From: an uncultured archaeon
GTDB taxonomy: Archaea > Asgardarchaeota > Thorarchaeia > Thorarchaeales > Thorarchaeaceae
Assembly (NCBI GenBank): GCA_964354495.1
Contig: CAYHAA010000037.1
Span: forward strand, 1-9,652
Direction of reading: 5' to 3'
Length of the DNA: 9,652 nucleotides
Part shown: positions 1 to 9,652 of the stretch, one piece after another
How the letters are laid out: each line of letters begins with the position of its first letter
Position numbering within the stretch: position 1 is the first letter of the stretch
Notes under the pieces: model-generated
What the model saw: the letters and a program-made list of their open reading frames with translations, nothing else
What the model was told of the DNA's origin: nothing
Database searches by the model: none
Program-made: the position numbers and the translations under genes

Positions 1-107
1 GGATTGGTGGTAGTATTCTCGGCTCACTGAAGACATTCCAGAAGATGTGGGTGTCTAAGAAAGAGTTCGAGGAAGTCGGACCAGAAGTCATACACCGCTG
101 TATCTAG
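1..107 (+). CDS. Actin (Asgard/lokiactin-type), 3' end only; 5'-truncated by the window edge, first full codon at 3
   Basis: Manual translation from base 3 gives [34 protein letters not shown], with TAG at 105-107. The leading 'gg' is compatible with a preceding TGG (W). It aligns without internal gaps to the eukaryotic actin C-terminus [36 protein letters not shown], apart from one missing residue at the very end. Absent from the ORF track because it has no start codon in the window. Confidence 0.95.
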
Positions 108-122
108 TCTATTCTCAGTTTC

Positions 123-161
123 CGAAGAGGGATGCTTTTCCCTCTTCGCTCTCCTGTTTTT
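123..161 (+). terminator. Probable terminator of the actin gene
   Basis: Perfect 10-bp stem CGAAGAGGGA (123-132) / TCCCTCTTCG (139-148) with a 6-nt loop, starting 15 nt after the actin stop. It is followed by a pyrimidine-rich run ending in TTTTT (157-161). Confidence 0.7.
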
Positions 162-314
162 CAATATTGCCTTCTTTTAAGTGATGATGCATCTATGGCG
201 GCTATCCCGAGTGGCTACTATCCTGACATGTCACCTCACTTGACTAGCAACAGAAGAAACGGCATCGTAGAACACAGCCAGACTCATCGAGAGAAGGAGT
301 TGCTGACAATAGGG

Positions 315-344: not shown

Positions 345-1694
345 GTGAACCCCCTGTCAATTGCTGCAATTGCTATCTTCGTGGTCACGCTTATTCTGAT
401 GATCCGCCGTCCTAGGGGCATGAACTTGGGCGTAGCCGCAGGTATCGGCGCTCTGGCGTCGCTTCTGGTAGGAACGGTTTCGCCTGCACTTGTCTACGAG
501 GCTCTTGCGGACATATGGGATGCAGCACTTGCTTTTCTCGGCATCGTCATGTTATCTGTCACTCTAGATGCCATGGGATTCTTCAGATGGGCTGCCCTCC
601 GAGTCGCCAGACTTGCAGATGGCAATGGAGTGAAGCTGTTCTTTCTGATATCATTGCTAACTGCTTCGGTTAGTATTCTGTTTGCGAATGACAGTGCGAT
701 TCTGATACTCACACCAATTGTCATTGAGATTGTTCGTGATCTGAAGATGAGTCAGAAGAACAGCTTGGCGTATCTCTTCGGTGCAGGACTGATAGCAGAC
801 ACAGCTGCAATGCCTCTCATAACAAGCAATCCTGTGAATATTCTGAGCGCAGACTTCTTCAGCTATACATTCATTCAGCACATGCTATTCATGGCTCCAG
901 TTGCTATTGTTACCCTTTTCATGAGCATTATGATTCTCTACGCCTACTTCAGGAAGGATGTCCCGCTGGCATACTCGACAGAGGAAGTTGAGAAGCTGAT
1001 TCAGGCAAGCTCCAAGCCGCTTCTGTTGAAGACGTGCATTATGACTCTCGTAGCCATAGACATAGGTTACGTCCTCACATCGTTGCTGAGAATCCCTGTG
1101 TCGTTTGTCATATTCTCTGGTGCGATATTCCTTCTATTAGTCTACTCAGTTAAGACTCAACGAATCAGTCAATCAATCAAGACCTATGATAGGCCTCTCT
1201 TGGTACTCAAGAGAGTCAACTGGGATATCCTGTTCTTCATGGTTTCGATTTTCCTTGTTGTGCAAGGCCTTAGAGTGGCGGGCACAGTTGACTTCTTTGC
1301 CAACCTGTTTGTCATGTCGCTTCAACTGCCGTTTGCTCTGTCTGTTCTCGTTCCAAGCTTCATAGTCACAATCGGAGCGAGCATCATGAACAACTGGCCG
1401 ATGACTATGGTCGGGTTATTGTCAATAGAAATGGCAGTAGACTCTGCAGGTCTAGGTGCTCAGGCCGTCACTTCCCTAATCTTCTCCAACATTATCGGTA
1501 ACAACCTAGGCCCACACTTCTTCCCCATTGGCTCGCTCGCTATCCTGATGTGGCTTGCCATCTTGAAGAGAAAGGGACTGACAATCACGCTGAGAGATTA
1601 CCTGAAAGTCGGATCCGTGCTATCGATACTGGAGGTCACGGTCGCCTCAATCATACTGTGGCTCGAGTTGACTTTCTTTGGACTAGTACTTTGA
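345..1694 (+). CDS. arsB: Arsenite/antimonite efflux permease, ArsB family
   Basis: 449 aa with many hydrophobic segments. ArsB-type motifs: LDAMGFFRWAALRVAR, LFANDSAILILTPIV, IADTAAMPLITSNPVNILSADFF, GNNLGPHFFPIGSLAILMW. GTG start. Confidence 0.9.
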   Translation: MNPLSIAAIAIFVVTLILMIRRPRGMNLGVAAGIGALASLLVGTVSPALVYEALADIWDAALAFLGIVMLSVTLDAMGFFRWAALRVARLADGNGVKLFFLISLLTASVSILFANDSAILILTPIVIEIVRDLKMSQKNSLAYLFGAGLIADTAAMPLITSNPVNILSADFFSYTFIQHMLFMAPVAIVTLFMSIMILYAYFRKDVPLAYSTEEVEKLIQASSKPLLLKTCIMTLVAIDIGYVLTSLLRIPVSFVIFSGAIFLLLVYSVKTQRISQSIKTYDRPLLVLKRVNWDILFFMVSIFLVVQGLRVAGTVDFFANLFVMSLQLPFALSVLVPSFIVTIGASIMNNWPMTMVGLLSIEMAVDSAGLGAQAVTSLIFSNIIGNNLGPHFFPIGSLAILMWLAILKRKGLTITLRDYLKVGSVLSILEVTVASIILWLELTFFGLVL

Positions 1695-1738: not shown

Positions 1739-2812
1739 CTAGGCTGTCCAATAGAGCCACTCACCATCTGTCTTCTCGCCTTGCAGCTTGCCCTTCTCAA
1801 ACCGTCTTCTGATGGTTGTGTATATCATCTTGTCCCTCTTCTTTGCCCTCGCATCGGTTTCTATGAGAGCTGTCATGATATCCCGGATTGTTCGCTTGTT
1901 AGGCAATCTGAAATAACCATTCTTCATGAGTGAATCGACAGCCCTTGAAGCTGACCACGGCTCAGGCTTCTGAGCCATCTCTGCTTCGAGTTTCGTTCTT
2001 GCCTCTTTGAACCTGGCTTCAAGTCTGTCCATTGGGACACCGACGACTTCTATCTTGTCAAGATCACCAATACCGAGTCCTCGCTCTACGAATGACTGAA
2101 TCACCTGTGCCTTATGGGGATTGATGCCTGCCAGATGAAGCCCGATGGCCTCTACTGCTACAGCGTCACGTCCAACGAAGAGAATGTCGGTCCTTGTTCT
2201 CGCGTCCTTGCCTTTGAAGAAATACGAGTAATACGTGGCGTCCAAGACTGCTAGGTCAATCCCTCCAATGGCCTCATAGAGAGATGTCAGGACACTGAAG
2301 AAGATCTCGCTCTTGTGGTACTGTACCTTCTTGCTGGTGGGTGGAAGACCAAAGAGGTTCTTCAGAATGCTTCCTCTATCATAAGCTCTCATGACATGTG
2401 TATCTACAAAGACACGGGGCTTGAAGACCAGCTTGGCCAGGTCAATGGTGACATCTCTAATTGGATTTGGAATCCTGACTGGAATCGTTTCGGTCTCCTC
2501 TGAGAGGTTCACAGAAATAACCGTGTCTGAGAATAGTGACTCCCACACCTTCAGTCTATCAGTAGCTGTTCCCTGATAGTTGTCAGTCTCGACAAGATAC
2601 TTCTTTGGTGAACGTGGGAACGCTCTGATGATTCCTTCAACTGTTTCCACTGTCGAATACGATCCGATTACAGGGGAGAATACCCCGCCTTTGATAACAA
2701 CCTCGCGATCTGAAACATCAATATCCTCAATTCCACCAATTAGATCACAGGCTTTCTTGACAGCATCATACTTATTCTCTCTGAGATTAACTGCTGCGAC
2801 TATGGCATTCAA
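1739..2812 (-). CDS. DUF362 (COG2006)-family protein, divergent, with a C-terminal winged-helix-like extension
   Basis: N-terminus MNAIVAAVN..AVKKACDLIGGI..EVVIK, then LKNLFG, DLAVLDA and VGRDAVAVEAIGLHLAGINP..GLG..D match DUF362 patterns. Start moved from the track's 2872 to the in-frame TTG at 2812, which has GGAGG 8 nt upstream (357 aa). Confidence 0.75.
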   Translation of the reverse strand: MNAIVAAVNLRENKYDAVKKACDLIGGIEDIDVSDREVVIKGGVFSPVIGSYSTVETVEGIIRAFPRSPKKYLVETDNYQGTATDRLKVWESLFSDTVISVNLSEETETIPVRIPNPIRDVTIDLAKLVFKPRVFVDTHVMRAYDRGSILKNLFGLPPTSKKVQYHKSEIFFSVLTSLYEAIGGIDLAVLDATYYSYFFKGKDARTRTDILFVGRDAVAVEAIGLHLAGINPHKAQVIQSFVERGLGIGDLDKIEVVGVPMDRLEARFKEARTKLEAEMAQKPEPWSASRAVDSLMKNGYFRLPNKRTIRDIMTALIETDARAKKRDKMIYTTIRRRFEKGKLQGEKTDGEWLYWTA

Positions 2813-2820
2813 ACAGCTCG

Positions 2821-2825
2821 CCTCC
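2821..2825 (-). promoter_or_regulatory. Shine-Dalgarno site for the DUF362 gene
   Basis: GGAGG on the minus strand, 8 nt upstream of the TTG at 2812. Confidence 0.6.
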
Positions 2826-2893
2826 GCTTGATGACGTTTCCCAAAGCTCCTCCTGATATTATCTCTGCTCAAATACTCCGAGCTAGAGGAAGC

Positions 2894-4102
2894 CTATGGT
2901 GAGTCCTGTTTCTGGAGCTGCGCAATCTTTTCTCGAACCTTATTGAGATCCCCAACTCGCTTGTTGACTGCTCCCTCTGCCTTTTCGATTCGCTTCTGGA
3001 TATTCTTGACTCGGTCATCTAGTGCAGAAAGCTCTCGCTTCTCCCGATTGTCTGCCTTGTCAAGCTCCTCTTTTGCATCATCCCACTCTTGCTTAGCAAG
3101 TCGCATCTGGTCATTGATACTCTCATAGTGTAGCCTCTTGAGCTCTGCCTTGTTCTGGCTCTCACGTACTCTTGCATCGAGCTGTGAACCGATTGCAGTC
3201 TGGTCTGCCAAGACCTGCTGCTTCTCCCTATGGAGGCTTGTTAGCTCAGTTATGCCATCCTTAATCTTGCTGTCCAGAAGGTCCTCAGGTTGCGTAATGC
3301 ATGCTCTTATCGTATCCATCTCAGGAATTGGCGCATCGCGAGCCTTGCTGAGGGAGGATATTGTAGCTGGTTCAGCACTCAGAGCATTGGACGCCGCTTG
3401 GAGGGGTGGTCTTCCTTGTGGATGTTGCTGCATCAGGGTGGACTGTCTATCTGGGGAAAAAGCAGTATCGCTGGGTGCGCTTGTCATTCTCGGTGGTTCT
3501 GACTTGGCAAATGAGGGGCTCACTGGTGTAGTTGCAGGTTGGACTCTTGCCTGCTCTATGGGTGTCCCAACAGGAGTTGCTTTGCTTGGCATTGGTCGAG
3601 TTGGCTCTCTCGGTGTTTGCAGTGGTCTTTGCATAGGCTGACTTGGTGTTGTTTCGGCTGGTCGCTGGGGTGTTTGAGGCTGAGTGGCAACTTCATGCAT
3701 GAGTTCTCGAACATCGCTTGCCCTGAGCATTCTGGTTTCGACAATATCCCCTCCTTCCTCTCTGATGCCGATTTCCTCTGCTCTCGCAAACGCCTCTCTT
3801 GCTTTCTCCATCTCGGATTTGCCTTTGCTGGACGATGTCGTTCTCAGTCTATCCTTAGATACTTCGCTGGGCCTCACCCATTCGTCGTCAGTCGTGACCT
3901 TCAGAGTTTCAGGGGATTGCCTGACGGGCTTCACTGGTTCCGCTCGCGGCTTTACTACTTCAACACTCTCCGACCTATCGGTGAGCCGTGTGGGAGTTTT
4001 CGTTGATTCATCCATTTTTGAGGAGAGGAGCGGCTTACCGCAGCGCACACAGTACTTCCTAGTAGGGAGGTTTGCCCTACCGCAACTTGCACACGTTCTC
4101 AT
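2894..4102 (-). CDS. Hypothetical protein: N-terminal zinc ribbon, long P/S/T/Q-rich disordered linker, C-terminal coiled coil
   Basis: 402 aa. CASC-x13-CVRC at the N-terminus. Low-complexity middle section. The last ~130 aa are rich in E/K/R/Q/L with heptad-like spacing and no prolines until the final residue. Confidence 0.85.
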   Translation of the reverse strand: MRTCASCGRANLPTRKYCVRCGKPLLSSKMDESTKTPTRLTDRSESVEVVKPRAEPVKPVRQSPETLKVTTDDEWVRPSEVSKDRLRTTSSSKGKSEMEKAREAFARAEEIGIREEGGDIVETRMLRASDVRELMHEVATQPQTPQRPAETTPSQPMQRPLQTPREPTRPMPSKATPVGTPIEQARVQPATTPVSPSFAKSEPPRMTSAPSDTAFSPDRQSTLMQQHPQGRPPLQAASNALSAEPATISSLSKARDAPIPEMDTIRACITQPEDLLDSKIKDGITELTSLHREKQQVLADQTAIGSQLDARVRESQNKAELKRLHYESINDQMRLAKQEWDDAKEELDKADNREKRELSALDDRVKNIQKRIEKAEGAVNKRVGDLNKVREKIAQLQKQDSP

Positions 4103-4278
4103 AGCACTTCAGTCCCTTTTCAGCACAAGTGCTACTATCCGTAACAAATGCAGTAAAGGTTTTCCAATGGCTTGTTCTCAGAAAAGGGGTTCAATTTGCT
4201 CTATCATTCGATGTTCCACTCACACATCAAGGGGTCGGTTCTGGCAGTTCCATATGGTTCAAGTCGAGGTGGTTGACT

Positions 4279-5745
4279 CTAATCTGAGCCCTTCAGACCT
4301 GCCTTTTCTTGTGCCATCTTGACTGGTGGCTTTATGGCAATAGGAACCGGGGATTTGTAGGCCCTCCCCATCTTTCTTTTCTCAAACTCATCTCGTACGT
4401 TCTTCAGCACATCCGGTTTTGTCAGAAGATCGATAGTTGTGCCTGCTAGAGTCTTCGCAGCAAACAAGAGCGACTTGTGCCCAATTCCTGCGCCGCTGCA
4501 TGCAACTGTCTGCCAAGAATGGCTGCCAACTCCCAAGACAAAGGTGGAAGTCGTGAACTCCATTGTGGGTGCAATCCAACTCACATCGCCAACATCTGTC
4601 GATCCAGGCCACACGATTCCTTCATCCCATGGGTCCATGATCTCGGTGTCAATATCAGTCTCAAGTAAGTCCTGCCAGCCCGGACGTCTTGATAGACGCA
4701 GTTCCTCAATTTTATCTTCCCTTGACACAGTTTCTGAGATTTCCTCAGCAAACTTCAACTCCTGTTTGGAATAAGTGGGTGCACCTATTTCTCTCATGTT
4801 AGCCGTAACAATTTCACTGAGCCCCTTGCTTGGAAGTACATTATAGGCTCCCTCAATGAATTCTGCTCTATGGGTTGTTCGCGCCATGAGATCTGCGCCA
4901 TCGGCCATCCTCAAGACCCACTCGTAGACCTGTTCTACCTGTTCCCGTTCGGGCGCTCTGACATAGTACCAGCTTCGCGCATATGGAGGAACAACATTTG
5001 GCTGCATGCCTCCATCTTCAATGACATAGTGAATACGTGCCTCTTGGATAATGTGTTCCCGCATGTAGTTGACTCCCGTATTCATCAGCTCCACAGCATC
5101 GAGGGCGCTTCTTCCCAGAAAAGGCGTATATGCTGCGTGAGATGCTACGCCATCGAAGTGGAATTTGACTGAATTCATAGCCAGACAGCTGCCAATGCCG
5201 GCGACGTTCGAACTTCCCGGATGATGACTCAGCACAGCATCAACATCATCATATAGACCCGCCCGCACCATGAATACCTTGCCGCTGTATGTCTCCTCAG
5301 CAGGAGTGCCATAGAATCTAATCGTTCCTGCTATTCCGTTACTCTCCATGGCAGTCTTGGTCGCTATTGCCGCAGCTAGTGCAGAGACTCCATGAATATT
5401 ATGTCCACATCCATGTCCCGGAGCACCCTCAATGAGTGGCTCTCTCCGTGTAGTAGCCCTTTGGGATATTCCTGGGAGTGCGTCAAATTCCCCCTGAACT
5501 CCAACAATCGGGCTTCCGCTGCCCCAGGATGCGACAAAGGCTGTGGGCATATCCGCAACTCCCCGTCGCACACTGAATCCATTCTCCTCAAGGGTCTTTG
5601 CCAGCAATGCTGAGGATTTGTATTCCACAAGTCCAAGTTCAGCAAAGTTCCATATCTTGTCACTTGTTTCAATCAATATGGACTTGTTACCGGTAATCCA
5701 CTTCCAAGCATCTTCTTTCATTCTTCTTTGCCTCAGTCCGACCAT
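4279..5745 (-). CDS. abgB: M20 family amidohydrolase, AbgB-like (p-aminobenzoyl-glutamate hydrolase subunit B type)
   Basis: Motifs EFDALPGISQ, GHGCGHN, GTPAEE, SHHPG, GRSALDAVELMNTGVNYMREH, GSTDVGDVSW. Start set at the first ATG (5745); ATG 5721 (MKEDAW, GAGG 9 nt upstream) is equally plausible. The track's TTG at 5811 adds a non-homologous leader. The actual substrate cannot be determined from sequence. Confidence 0.88.
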   Translation of the reverse strand: MVGLRQRRMKEDAWKWITGNKSILIETSDKIWNFAELGLVEYKSSALLAKTLEENGFSVRRGVADMPTAFVASWGSGSPIVGVQGEFDALPGISQRATTRREPLIEGAPGHGCGHNIHGVSALAAAIATKTAMESNGIAGTIRFYGTPAEETYSGKVFMVRAGLYDDVDAVLSHHPGSSNVAGIGSCLAMNSVKFHFDGVASHAAYTPFLGRSALDAVELMNTGVNYMREHIIQEARIHYVIEDGGMQPNVVPPYARSWYYVRAPEREQVEQVYEWVLRMADGADLMARTTHRAEFIEGAYNVLPSKGLSEIVTANMREIGAPTYSKQELKFAEEISETVSREDKIEELRLSRRPGWQDLLETDIDTEIMDPWDEGIVWPGSTDVGDVSWIAPTMEFTTSTFVLGVGSHSWQTVACSGAGIGHKSLLFAAKTLAGTTIDLLTKPDVLKNVRDEFEKRKMGRAYKSPVPIAIKPPVKMAQEKAGLKGSD

Positions 5746-5977
5746 TTGCGAGTCTAAGAATACACACTGAGCAGAGTATAGATCTTCACATAAATGTGAG
5801 TGGCGGCGCAATTCTGTCGATGCTTAATGAGTGTTTATCATGGGAGAACAAGCTGGCAGCGAGGAGAAAGGCACGAAGTGGTCAGCTGACCGATCTCACC
5901 CGGTATCAAACTGGATTATTATGCTTGACAGAAGACTAATCAGCAACTTTGTACACTGTCACTGAGCTGTACCAAAG

Positions 5978-7060
5978 ATGAATTCCTACGAGAAACTAGC
6001 AGCCACGCTAGACAAAATTCCTAATGGATTTCCGGCTGTTGAAGACGGAACCCATCTGAGAATACTTGAATGGATTTTTACTCCTGAGGAGGCAGAGCTC
6101 GCTAGCAAGATGAAACTTCGAGGCGAGACTCTAGACGAGATGGCGGGTCGTCTGAGGATTCCAAAGAAGAAACTCAATTTGCTTCTTACCACTATGGTGT
6201 CTAAGGGGCAGATCAGTTCATGGACATCCAAGAGCGCAGGTGGCAAGAAGTACGGACTGCTCCCCTTTGCAGTTGGAATCTATGAAGAACAACTGAATCG
6301 CATGGACGAGGAGTTTGCACGACTGCTGGAGCAGTACTTTAAACAGGGTTTCAAAAAAATCGCTACAATAGAGCCGGTCATCTTCAAGGTCATTCCTGTC
6401 AACCAGAGCATCAGAGGCGAGCTCGAGATTCATCCCTACGAGCAGGCAGAGCAGCTTCTTGAGAATGCAGCATCGTGGGGGATTCGAGAATGCATCTGCA
6501 AGAAGCAGAAAGCACTTCTTGGACAGCCATGTTCCTATCCTACAACCGTCTGCATGGCTTTCGTCCCGAACAGAGAACACGCATTTGATAATGATGAGCT
6601 TACAAAGCCGATTACGAAAGAGGAGTCACTGAGACTTCTGAGGCAGGCAGAGGAAGCAGGTCTTGTCCACTGCTCATACAACACACAGGCAGGTCATTAC
6701 TACATCTGTAACTGCTGTACATGCTGTTGTGCTGTTCTCAGGGGGTTCAGTGCGCTCAGCAATCCTCGTGAGTACATAAAGACCGATTTCGTAATTTCAG
6801 TGAATGCAGACCTATGCACTGGATGCGGAACATGCATAGATAGATGTCAGTTCCATGCTCTCAGCGTCCCTGAAGATGTATGTGTTCCCAATACAACAAG
6901 ATGCATTGGATGTGGGGTCTGTGCCATGGTGTGCCCCGAATCTGCACTAGAGCTCATTAGAAAGGAACCTGCAGATAAGCCACCCTCGCCCGAGAATCTA
7001 ATGGATTGGATGACTCAGCGTGCAGTCTTTCGCAAGGTAGATCCCTCAGATGTGCTCTAG
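5978..7060 (+). CDS. Iron-sulfur protein: N-terminal HTH-like region, Cys-rich central domain, C-terminal 2x[4Fe-4S] ferredoxin domain
   Basis: 360 aa. HTH-like TLDEMAGRLRIPKKKLNLLLTTMVSKG. Central ECIC..PC..VC and ICNCCTCCC. Ferredoxin motifs CTGCGTCIDRC and CIGCGVCAMVCP. Confidence 0.85.
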   Translation: MNSYEKLAATLDKIPNGFPAVEDGTHLRILEWIFTPEEAELASKMKLRGETLDEMAGRLRIPKKKLNLLLTTMVSKGQISSWTSKSAGGKKYGLLPFAVGIYEEQLNRMDEEFARLLEQYFKQGFKKIATIEPVIFKVIPVNQSIRGELEIHPYEQAEQLLENAASWGIRECICKKQKALLGQPCSYPTTVCMAFVPNREHAFDNDELTKPITKEESLRLLRQAEEAGLVHCSYNTQAGHYYICNCCTCCCAVLRGFSALSNPREYIKTDFVISVNADLCTGCGTCIDRCQFHALSVPEDVCVPNTTRCIGCGVCAMVCPESALELIRKEPADKPPSPENLMDWMTQRAVFRKVDPSDVL

Positions 7061-7120
7061 GCCAAAAAGGTATGACTACTCTTAAGAAGAACCGAGAGGA
7101 AAGAATCCCTGGAGTTGCTC

Positions 7121-8092
7121 ATGACAATCAACACGAACTCTGGCAAAAAGAAGAGTAAGTCAGAGAAGGTGCGATCAACTCCTTATATTCCACATCTTGC
7201 CGAGTTCTATTTTGAACCGACCTTTGATTGGACCTATGAGGAGGCAAAGCTGCTCTTTGCCAGCAAGACTCACGCGCTTAAGGAGTTTGAACAGGACACT
7301 GTGTTGTTCATGGAATGCATAGAGGGCATGAAGCAACTACCGGAGTCATCAGTTGATCTGGTCATTGCTGACCCTCCTTTTGGAATCGCTTTCGATGGGA
7401 AGAGCAGTGTCTACAATCGTGATGAGTCCCTCGTGGTTGGTGGCTACACAGAGGCTCAGGGGTCTTACGACGAGTTCACTAGGCAATGGATGGGCCAACT
7501 ACCTCGAATAATGAAAAATGATGCCTCCGCCTACGTATTCAGTGGGTGGACTAATCTTGGAGCTATTCTGGCTGGTGCAGAAGAGGCTGGCCTCGTAACA
7601 TTGAACCATCTAATCTGGCACTATTCCTTTGGGGTCTATACAAAACGAAGGTTCGTGACAAGTCACTATCATATTGTGCTGCTCGTCAAAGACACTAGTA
7701 GCCACTTCTTCAACAAGATAGAGAACTATCCCGAGGATGTGTGGATTGTGAACCGCAAGTACAGAGCTGGACTTGCAAAGAATGGCACCAAGCTTCCACT
7801 CGATGTTGTTGCTCGCTGTATCGACTTCTCCTCAAGGCCTGGTGACCTCGTGTTGGATCCCTTCATGGGAAATGGTACAACTGCCGTCGCAGCAAAGTCC
7901 GCATTTCGGCACTTTTTGGGATTCGAAGTCAATAAGAGGCTGAAGCCGCTTCTTAGGCGTGAGATAAGTTCAGTGAAACCTGGCCAATCATACAAGCCCT
8001 ATAGAGAACGTCTTCCAACACTTGATGAATTGGCAGAGCTCCATCCGCGTGCCTATCAAGAATATCAACAGAGAGCAGGAAAGAAATACTGA
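7121..8092 (+). CDS. Site-specific DNA methyltransferase (N4-C or N6-A), beta class
   Basis: Catalytic motif IV (LVIADPPFG) precedes SAM-binding motif I (LVLDPFMGNGTTAVAA), which is the beta order. Start moved to the ATG at 7121, with GGAG at 7111-7114 (323 aa). Confidence 0.92.
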   Translation: MTINTNSGKKKSKSEKVRSTPYIPHLAEFYFEPTFDWTYEEAKLLFASKTHALKEFEQDTVLFMECIEGMKQLPESSVDLVIADPPFGIAFDGKSSVYNRDESLVVGGYTEAQGSYDEFTRQWMGQLPRIMKNDASAYVFSGWTNLGAILAGAEEAGLVTLNHLIWHYSFGVYTKRRFVTSHYHIVLLVKDTSSHFFNKIENYPEDVWIVNRKYRAGLAKNGTKLPLDVVARCIDFSSRPGDLVLDPFMGNGTTAVAAKSAFRHFLGFEVNKRLKPLLRREISSVKPGQSYKPYRERLPTLDELAELHPRAYQEYQQRAGKKY

Positions 8093-8121
8093 CTCATGCA
8101 ACTAGAAGATGTGACTGAAGA

Positions 8122-9561
8122 ATGGACCCTGAAGATTTGCTTGCTGAACATGGTTCCGCCTTTGATAGGCTTGCAGATGCCTCCAGTTCAAGCGACATCT
8201 TCAGCAGACAATTCGGGACAGAGTTAGCCAAGTGGGAGTTCGCATTCTTCCAGAGATTCTGTGAACGCCTCAAGGGGCAAAGGCTCCTGTATCGTGGATT
8301 TGTACGGCACACCCGTGACACATCATTGATTCTCTTGACCCCCAGTCCTTGGTTGCTTGAGGGTGAGTTTGTGTTCTTTGAGCGAGACCAGAATTTGCCT
8401 GATGATGGTGCCTATGTCGAAGTGACGGGCAGAAGAGTGGCCGCTCCGACTGTTCTCCAGCACTCACAGACTGTGCTTCGCGCCATAACCGCAGAATCGT
8501 GTCAAGAACTCCCGATAGACTTTTCCTCCCAGATTGCGCCCCCATTGAGTCTCGCTGAGCTCTCAAGGATGCTGTTCGAGCGAGTGGGGATGGCCGAGGC
8601 AAGCAAACGAGTCTTTGCCAGGCTCTTTGTTTCCAGCCCCCCCTATCAGACAGCTGTTGGAGGCCTGACTACAGGTATTCAGGCCATTGCCTCTATGGCT
8701 GAAGTGCATAGATTCCTGTCATTCATAAGAGGAGTTCTCCCGCCAACCATGAGGAACAGGAAGACCTCCGTACAGGATGTACGTGGAATCAGGGTTCCTA
8801 CACCACGAATGTTCAGGATCGATATCGGCTCACTACCAAGGTCAAGACTGGAACGAATCTGCATTGAGCGTAGAGACCCGTCTGGCTTCAGAGAGGTCTC
8901 AGTGGGCACGATGACGGAACCAGAGACCGCTGCATTACCAGATATCCCGCTCGCGCTTGCGTCCGAGGACTTTTGGATTGAGACGGGAAACCCCGCAGAA
9001 CTTCAACTGCCAATCTTGAAGTCAGCAATTACCTATCAGCTGTTGACTCCAGTGGTATCACAGCGTAGTATTGACACCGGCACAAAGCATGTACTGTCAA
9101 GACTAGAAGCACTACAGGAGAGCTTCGAGCTAGGAGAGAGTGCGCTCACTCGAGGAAAGGTGCTAGATGCCGATTCGCTAGGTAGACCGATGACAGCGCT
9201 GAAAATTGCGCGTTCAACAGCACGAGCATCTTGGAATGACAAAGTCACTGCAAGTGAAATCAAGCAGTCTTGGGACAGGGTCGTTGAACCCGCACTGAAG
9301 GAGTTCATAGAAATAGCTGAGGTCAAGAGGAAATCAGAAGAGGACTGGGGAAAAAGGAGTCGCATTGACAAATTCAATACAAAGGTCCTGAAAGCTATTC
9401 GGCAGCTGGATACTGGGAAACGGGGCGATCTTGGCCCGACCCTAAATGAGATCGCTCAAGAAGCAGGTGTTGAACGCTATGTTGCTGCAGAGAACCTGGT
9501 GCGGATGAAGGATAGCGGGGTGCTCTATGAACCGCGACCAGGTCACTACAGACTTGTGTAA
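8122..9561 (+). CDS. Hypothetical protein; probable degenerate (ATPase-dead) MCM-family paralogue with a C-terminal winged helix
   Basis: 479 aa, and the CDS itself is clear. MCM-like segments occur in the correct order: LPDDGAYVEVTG (OB fold), VGMAEASKRVFARLF, FLSFIRGVLP, LKSAITYQLLTP, RPMTALKIARSTARASWNDKVT, GVLYEPRPGHYRLV*. There is no GxxGxxKS, no Walker B DE and no Zn-finger cysteine pairs. Family assignment is by eye. Confidence 0.65.
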   Translation: MDPEDLLAEHGSAFDRLADASSSSDIFSRQFGTELAKWEFAFFQRFCERLKGQRLLYRGFVRHTRDTSLILLTPSPWLLEGEFVFFERDQNLPDDGAYVEVTGRRVAAPTVLQHSQTVLRAITAESCQELPIDFSSQIAPPLSLAELSRMLFERVGMAEASKRVFARLFVSSPPYQTAVGGLTTGIQAIASMAEVHRFLSFIRGVLPPTMRNRKTSVQDVRGIRVPTPRMFRIDIGSLPRSRLERICIERRDPSGFREVSVGTMTEPETAALPDIPLALASEDFWIETGNPAELQLPILKSAITYQLLTPVVSQRSIDTGTKHVLSRLEALQESFELGESALTRGKVLDADSLGRPMTALKIARSTARASWNDKVTASEIKQSWDRVVEPALKEFIEIAEVKRKSEEDWGKRSRIDKFNTKVLKAIRQLDTGKRGDLGPTLNEIAQEAGVERYVAAENLVRMKDSGVLYEPRPGHYRLV

Positions 9562-9563
9562 TC

Positions 9564-9652
9564 CTATGGAAATGCCTTGTAGAACTCCTGTGGTTCCTCG
9601 CCCTCTTCGACTATCTCAATCTCTTGCACACCTACGCGTTCAGCATCGTATC
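9564..9652 (-). CDS. Gelsolin-repeat protein (Asgard gelsolin-like), 3' end only; runs off the window edge
   Basis: Minus-strand translation of 9650-9564 gives YDAERVGVQEIEIVEEGEEPQEFYKAFP*. It aligns without gaps to the end of gelsolin segment 2 as recalled ([26 protein letters not shown]) and carries the EGxEPxxF repeat-end motif. Only 28 aa are visible. Absent from the ORF track. Confidence 0.82.
   Translation of the reverse strand, partial: YDAERVGVQEIEIVEEGEEPQEFYKAFP

Follow-up and report, generated by a model that had tools for sequence, protein, structure and literature searches.

A Thorarchaeota actin gene split across two contigs and a possible recombination module at its 3′ end

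The locus described here has its closest counterparts in the conserved actin of Asgard archaea and, for its repeated tail only, in the additive genomic islands of bacteria and archaea, in which integrative elements insert in tandem at the 3′ ends of tRNA genes. Lokiactin has been described as the actin best conserved across Asgard archaea and as the protein from which the filaments of Ca. Lokiarchaeum ossiferum are built (PMC9834061). Lokiactin filaments in cells have been published (PMC9834061; bioRxiv 10.1101/2025.02.26.640444), and F-actin-like double-stranded filaments have been demonstrated for L. ossiferum and the Hodarchaeales HC1 only (PMC9834061; bioRxiv 10.1101/2025.02.26.640444). 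The DNA we analysed (hereafter the window, 9,652 nucleotides) is the whole of contig C37 (CAYHAA010000037.1) of a Thorarchaeota metagenome-assembled genome (MAG; GCA_964354495.1) with 51 contigs and 3.30 Mb, estimated at 97.7% completeness, 3.8% contamination and 48% GC. Sequence similarity assigns the host to the genus of SMTZ1-45 and OWC2.

At the left edge of the window, frame 3-107 of the forward strand encodes 34 actin C-terminal residues (codons 3-104), followed by a TAG stop (105-107). The frame is missing from a list of open reading frames (ORFs) that requires start codons, because it is open at its 5′ end; the initial annotation, made from the letters of the window, had nevertheless claimed it, and both the translation and the profile score bear this out. 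The fragment alone matches the Pfam Actin model with 45.5 bits (E 3e-11, model positions 376-407 of 410), and the actin tail is thus real, far beyond chance. Codons 1-345 of the gene were located at the end of contig C12 (C12:94121-95153), which terminates in a Met-started actin frame of 362 residues that runs off the contig within an overlap with the window. This overlap spans exactly 55 nt (window 1-55, forward strand; C12:95154-95208, the last 55 nt of C12), is unique to this place in the assembly and links both halves of the gene. Joining C12 and C37 yields an actin of 379 residues, close to the roughly 375 that the initial annotation had expected to the left, and all the actin nucleotide-binding motifs lie in the recovered ORF. 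The C12 part carries a Pfam Actin domain (PF00022, 417 bits, residues 10-362) that is full length, as in lokiactin, and the gene is the only member of the actin family in the 97.7%-complete genome.

The evidence that joins C12 to C37 is the overlap of one k-mer together with the colinearity seen in relatives. Across the whole assembly, 32 exact 55-nt end-to-end links were counted; far from being chance matches, they represent the edges of an assembly graph built with k=55. The right end of the window behaves in the same way, its last 55 nt being the first 55 nt of contig C7; the overlaps at both ends therefore give the contig order C12, C37, C7. Independent support comes from OWC2, in which a single contig (L029; PRDH01000012.1) is colinear without a break at 92% nucleotide identity from 2.9 kb upstream of the junction to window position ~160, across both junction and stop, from independent full-length homologues that are also 379 residues long with an identical tail, and from the DUF362, Zn-ribbon and Fer4 genes that OWC2 likewise has downstream of actin. 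The initial annotation had suspected a possible chimera at the joint between actin and the downstream arsB gene. That joint sits within one contig, the true break being inside the actin gene at window 55/56, and the colinearity with relatives speaks against a chimera there too. A metagenome scan with ArsB found no independent contig that crosses from actin into ArsB. Taken together, window 3-107 is almost certainly the true 3′ end of a single, intact Thorarchaeota actin gene that the assembler split at a 55-mer node.

The alternative that survives best, although we consider it very improbable, is that the window copy is an orphan, non-coding actin tail and that C12 really continues into another tail copy that was left unbinned. 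It draws on the facts that orphan copies of the tail are common in relatives (see below) and that the left margin of the repeated unit is exactly where the assembly graph branches. However, the extra copies in relatives begin at window-equivalent positions 42-91 (most commonly 56-58), whereas the window matches actin from position 1 and has positions 1-55 in common with C12. In addition, the genome holds one unit only, the sequence of OWC2 runs colinear across the junction, and the copy in the window is intact, with a protein sequence identical to that of SMTZ1-45.

The reconstructed protein is 98.9% identical over 379 residues to the actin of SMTZ1-45 (LRSL01000109.1), with the same tail, and identity to the actins of SMTZ1-45, OWC2 and AB_25 is ~99%, within a range of 93-99% for Thorarchaeota. 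Identity falls to 80% for actins of Jord- and Freyarchaeia, to 73-76% for those of Njord-, Hel-, Hod- and Atabeyarchaeia and of the Lokiarchaeia type, and to 53-63% for eukaryotic actins (58% in a global alignment with one of them). Only four indels separate it from eukaryotic actin: three residues gained at the N-terminus, two gained in the D-loop, one lost near residue 233, and a missing Lys373. Aligned with eukaryotic actin, the motifs DNGTG, YPISHG (His73), TQAVLS (Gln137), DSGDGVTH and LSGGST are all conserved, and the phosphate 1, phosphate 2 and adenosine motifs as well as the equivalents of Gln137 and His161 are present, as in lokiactin. Among solved structures the best match was the actin of Hodarchaeales HC1 (PDB 9wc4, E 1e-181); actins of yeast and animals came next (~1e-150).

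A quick IQ-TREE analysis, with SH-aLRT support only, was run after leaving out two truncated eukaryotic rows and one 509-residue actin-related protein (ARP), and excluding the 50%-identity representatives, which mixed Asgard with eukaryotic actins. It recovered a Thorarchaeota clade (SH-aLRT 100) in which our protein was placed beside SMTZ1-45 and AB_25 (98), eukaryotic actins in a clade of their own (100), and the Asgard actin-related paralogues on long branches. The protein thus groups apart from both eukaryotic actins and ARPs, as lokiactin does, in a tree whose deep branching order is unresolved. The initial annotation had inferred that the window is Asgard DNA and had asked for a tree in which the protein would not fall among eukaryotic actins; both expectations hold, the source being a Thorarchaeota MAG with an actin 99% identical to those of SMTZ1-45, OWC2 and AB_25. 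Eukaryotic contamination, or a chimeric eukaryote-prokaryote contig, might be suggested by the many eukaryotic actins among the matches with high bit scores, but is refuted by the gap in identity between eukaryotes and Thorarchaeota, the Asgard-type tail, synteny with Thorarchaeota contigs, a normal GC content and an ArsB with Asgard affinities. Hardly more credible is the view that the protein is an ARP paralogue and not the conserved filament-forming actin. ARPs are frequent in Asgard genomes, and in one relative (L071) a paralogue of 43% identity ends in the same tail. The genome studied here, however, has no second actin-family gene, the protein shares 73-80% identity with lokiactins from other Asgard classes, and the ARPs of Asgard archaea form long branches apart from it.

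Alignments and tree together identify the predicted protein as the lokiactin orthologue of Thorarchaeota and as a protein that is already known, given its 99% identity to a public sequence. With the lokiactins of Ca. Lokiarchaeum ossiferum and HC1 it has in common a full actin domain, a length of ~380 residues, 73-80% identity across Asgard classes, a tail without Lys373, and profilin and gelsolin genes in the same genome. It differs from them in its Thorarchaeota tail, KEF...IHRCI instead of KEY...HRCF, and from L. ossiferum in the number of actin-family genes, one here and four there (PMC9834061). Compared with eukaryotic actin (yeast 1YAG, beta-actin 2BTF), it retains the nucleotide-binding motifs, His73 and the C-terminal helix with Cys374 at 58% identity, and departs in the replacement of Phe375 by Ile, the absence of Lys373, the indels at the N-terminus, D-loop and residue 233, and its separate clade. 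With a full actin fold and ATP-binding motifs, the 379-residue protein would form ATP-dependent F-actin-like filaments, by inference from cultured Lokiarchaeia and Hodarchaeales.

In the bovine profilin-beta-actin structure, the C-terminus of actin belongs to the profilin contact surface. Two departures from eukaryotic actin reported in the initial annotation, namely Phe at the position of Tyr362 and an ending HR-CI in place of HRKCF (one residue shorter, with the Cys kept), were both confirmed by global alignment. The ending HRCF was found in 65 of the 85 Asgard-length homologues, and a tail shorter by one residue (without Lys373) is, on this comparison, the general state of Asgard actins. 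Phe362 and IHRCI occur together in the seven closest homologues, all of them Thorarchaeota; Phe at 362 is not unique (a Solanum actin has KAEFDE), and a few further actins from Asgard archaea likewise end in Ile. The combination KEF...HR-CI is best described as a trait of the Thorarchaeota lineage, with no sign of a special function. Two kinds of unusual actin ends were observed in other loci. In several related lineages (L058, L063, L065 and L078, about 7036-7167), the C-terminal actin match is ~10 residues longer (44 aligned versus 34). In another relative within the phylum, assembled as a single contig of 1.4 Mb (L108, G014:C1:534612-535725), the actin match is split near the C-terminus, with residues 4-347 followed by 340-362 in another frame, and the actin ORF ends in an unrelated tail; either a frameshift or DNA inserted at the actin tail could be the cause.

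Candidate regulators of the filament are encoded in the same genome, as is the case for lokiactin. Contig C16 carries a pair of profilin genes in tandem, at C16:43131-43598 and C16:43673-44047 (155 and 124 residues), matching the solved Thorarchaeota profilin 7PBH at 2e-55 and 3e-19, with a match of 1e-11 to chain P of 5ZZA, the Loki profilin in its crystal structure with actin. The Pfam Profilin model has no match anywhere in the genome and misses both of these genes. At the right edge of the window, positions 9564-9652 of the reverse strand hold the last 28 codons and the stop of a two-domain gelsolin (2DGel) of 198 residues, whose start lies on C7 (C7:1-563) and which matches PDB 7C2H (Thorarchaeota 2DGel3) at E 4e-103; more gelsolin domains are found on C11 and C4. 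By inference from published work on relatives, the actin filaments would be controlled by the cell’s own profilins and gelsolins. Actin and 2DGel are convergent neighbours throughout Thorarchaeota, at a distance of 0.5-3.6 kb in distant lineages (L054, L044, L053, L076, L072) and of 9.5-18.8 kb in 11 genomes of this genus. It seems that an island has expanded between these two genes of the cytoskeleton.

In the window this interval opens with a gene for an ArsB arsenite efflux permease (345-1694, forward strand, 449 residues; Pfam ArsB 274 bits, NCBIfam ArsB 375 bits), which follows directly after the end of actin. When 28 genomes of the genus were compared, ArsB was missing in all 27 others, and its nearest named relatives are found in another Thorarchaeota lineage (69%), then in Njord- and Atabeyarchaeia (~65%) and Bathyarchaeia. 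Its GC content is normal. On the metagenome contig L120, an ArsB gene of 91% nucleotide identity adjoins the same DUF362 and Zn-ribbon genes as in the window, and L119 is arranged likewise. These two genes encode a DUF362-like protein of 377 residues (1739-2872, reverse strand; 87% protein identity in OWC2, downstream of actin) and a Zn-ribbon protein of 402 residues (2894-4102, reverse strand; 93% identical in OWC2, again downstream of actin). The next gene, for an M20-family amidohydrolase of 510 residues (4279-5811, reverse strand), is absent at this place in OWC2 and is a second insertion relative to that genome. Three genes on the forward strand complete the interval: a 4Fe-4S ferredoxin-domain (Fer4) protein of 360 residues (5978-7060), found downstream of actin in several Thorarchaeota and present by its start in OWC2; an N6/N4 DNA methyltransferase of 325 residues (7115-8092); and a conserved Thorarchaeota protein of 479 residues without a family match (8122-9561), which adjoins the gelsolin gene in L072 and L076. 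In more distant Thorarchaeota, Fer4, the methyltransferase, the gene corresponding to 8122-9561 and gelsolin follow actin.

Colinearity with OWC2 stops at ~160 and resumes at ~1746, in the DUF362 gene, with ArsB in the gap. The two loci are otherwise alike, with 92% nucleotide identity through the actin gene, the same genes upstream and partly the same genes downstream; they differ in what comes after the tail, which is directly ArsB here and other cassettes with extra tail copies in OWC2. Upstream of actin (L003, C12:85209-95208, 5653-8637), we observed genes for an HD-domain hydrolase with an HD-associated region, for a Mini-III-like RNase III-domain protein and for a 257-residue protein without a Pfam match, the last of which is divergent from actin.

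The repeated element, which we call the tail unit, is present in the window as one copy (57-167, forward strand) consisting of the last 16-17 actin codons, the TAG stop, a 15-nt spacer, a hairpin and a T-run. The hairpin (123-148, forward strand) has a 10-bp stem formed by CGAAGAGGGA and TCCCTCTTCG around the loop TGCTTT, is followed by T5 at 157-161, and is found in both the minimum free energy and centroid structures. A hairpin was present in 74 of 75 units, which amount to 56 distinct sequences with a mean folding energy of −14.6 kcal/mol. In an outside-in pair count over the 75 units, its outer 5 bp were ~100% paired, with GC/AT covariation. RNAalifold returned no structure from a MAFFT alignment of the same 75 units, in which the variable loop was misaligned. 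We read the hairpin as a candidate terminator of actin.

Of 69 related loci searched with a profile of the unit, 32 (L031, L093, L038, L032, L041, L021, L035, L042, L055 and 23 more) carry 2-4 direct copies. All copies lie downstream of actin and in its orientation, and in whole genomes of the genus they are confined to these arrays and not dispersed. Each extra copy carries the tail variant of its own genome’s actin, and the extra copies are decaying, with non-synonymous changes and lost stops. Similarity drops with distance from actin in six of the nine loci that have at least three copies, a trend that is modest only. Direct repeats of the target’s 3′ end that flank inserted DNA, as expected of a site-specific integrative element, were found in relatives; the window has a single copy.

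The DNA between units encodes HepT/MNT and DUF433/DUF5615 pairs, a deaminase-TPR protein, an HD-B12-radical-SAM protein and nitroreductases, together with GNAT acetyltransferases, a beta-lactamase-family protein, an S15 peptidase, an ABC ATPase, small membrane proteins and many unknowns. The four-copy array L117 (CSMAG_2458) holds an HD-B12-radical-SAM fusion of 1038 residues (2110-5226, forward strand) and, at 5444-8493 of the reverse strand, a co-oriented run of four genes (190, 215, 175 and 440 residues) without Pfam matches, possibly a defence module. In the Thorarchaeota genome CSMAG_407, a second actin-like gene (L071:6831-7952, forward strand) comes right after the primary actin and is 43% identical to it overall, with its last 19 residues 100% identical to the primary actin tail. 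A tail at 100% in a protein at 43% implies that the actin tail recombines as a module, and it suggests either gene conversion or the in-frame capture of an orphan tail by the paralogue.

The arrays resemble tRNA-gene additive islands in that direct 3′-end repeats bracket successive accessory blocks and in that the outer copies decay. They differ in their target, a protein-coding gene (actin), in the small size of the blocks (0.2-5 kb), and in the lack of an integrase within the arrays or next to them. Neither an integrase nor a transposase was seen in 20 cargo proteins or among the best 25 of 58 families for 53 inter-unit ORFs, and the phage integrase model PF00589 had no match in four of five genomes with large arrays. 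Since no integrase is linked to the arrays, an integrase model of the tRNA type fails a defining test. We also considered an integron and rejected it, given that no tyrosine recombinase lies next to actin, the cargo occurs in both orientations and the repeat contains actin coding sequence. Homologous recombination at the unit, either of the Campbell type or unequal, would be the simplest alternative mechanism.

Our reading of the arrays is tentative, and we hold it with somewhat less than even confidence. The end of Thorarchaeota actin (~17 codons) and its hairpin would act as a recombination module, through which accessory genes accrete between actin and 2DGel, its ancestrally convergent neighbour, each event leaving behind an orphan tail, apparently without a linked integrase. 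Toxin-antitoxin pairs, transporters, enzymes and even a second actin would be the cargo of this module, ArsB would occupy the slot in our genome, and the break at 55/56 would mark the module’s left edge. This break falls at the wobble base of a Ser codon that differs from relative to relative, and one base further on lies the left edge that the tail unit usually has. Several other relatives’ assemblies are also broken in or just after the actin tail. The cause is most likely the co-assembly of strains that have the actin body in common and differ from the tail onward: strain differences beginning at wobble base 56, the left margin of a recombination-prone unit, would end the contig there, and gene content downstream of the unit would vary between strains, with ArsB as its local form.

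For annotation, the result means that the only actin gene of this genome is intact though it lies on two contigs, and that C12, C37 and C7 follow one another in the genome. The actin itself adds one more copy of a well-studied protein to a field in which Asgard actins, profilins and gelsolins have been published. The tail-unit arrays may be the only new part, as a limited check of the literature on Asgard mobile elements did not turn up any reference to actin as a site of insertion. If our reading of them is true, the 3′ end of an essential and extremely conserved cytoskeleton gene would anchor a strain-variable island, which would be an unusual insertion target in archaea, and such a tail-anchored island would account for the frequent breaks of Thorarchaeota assemblies at actin.
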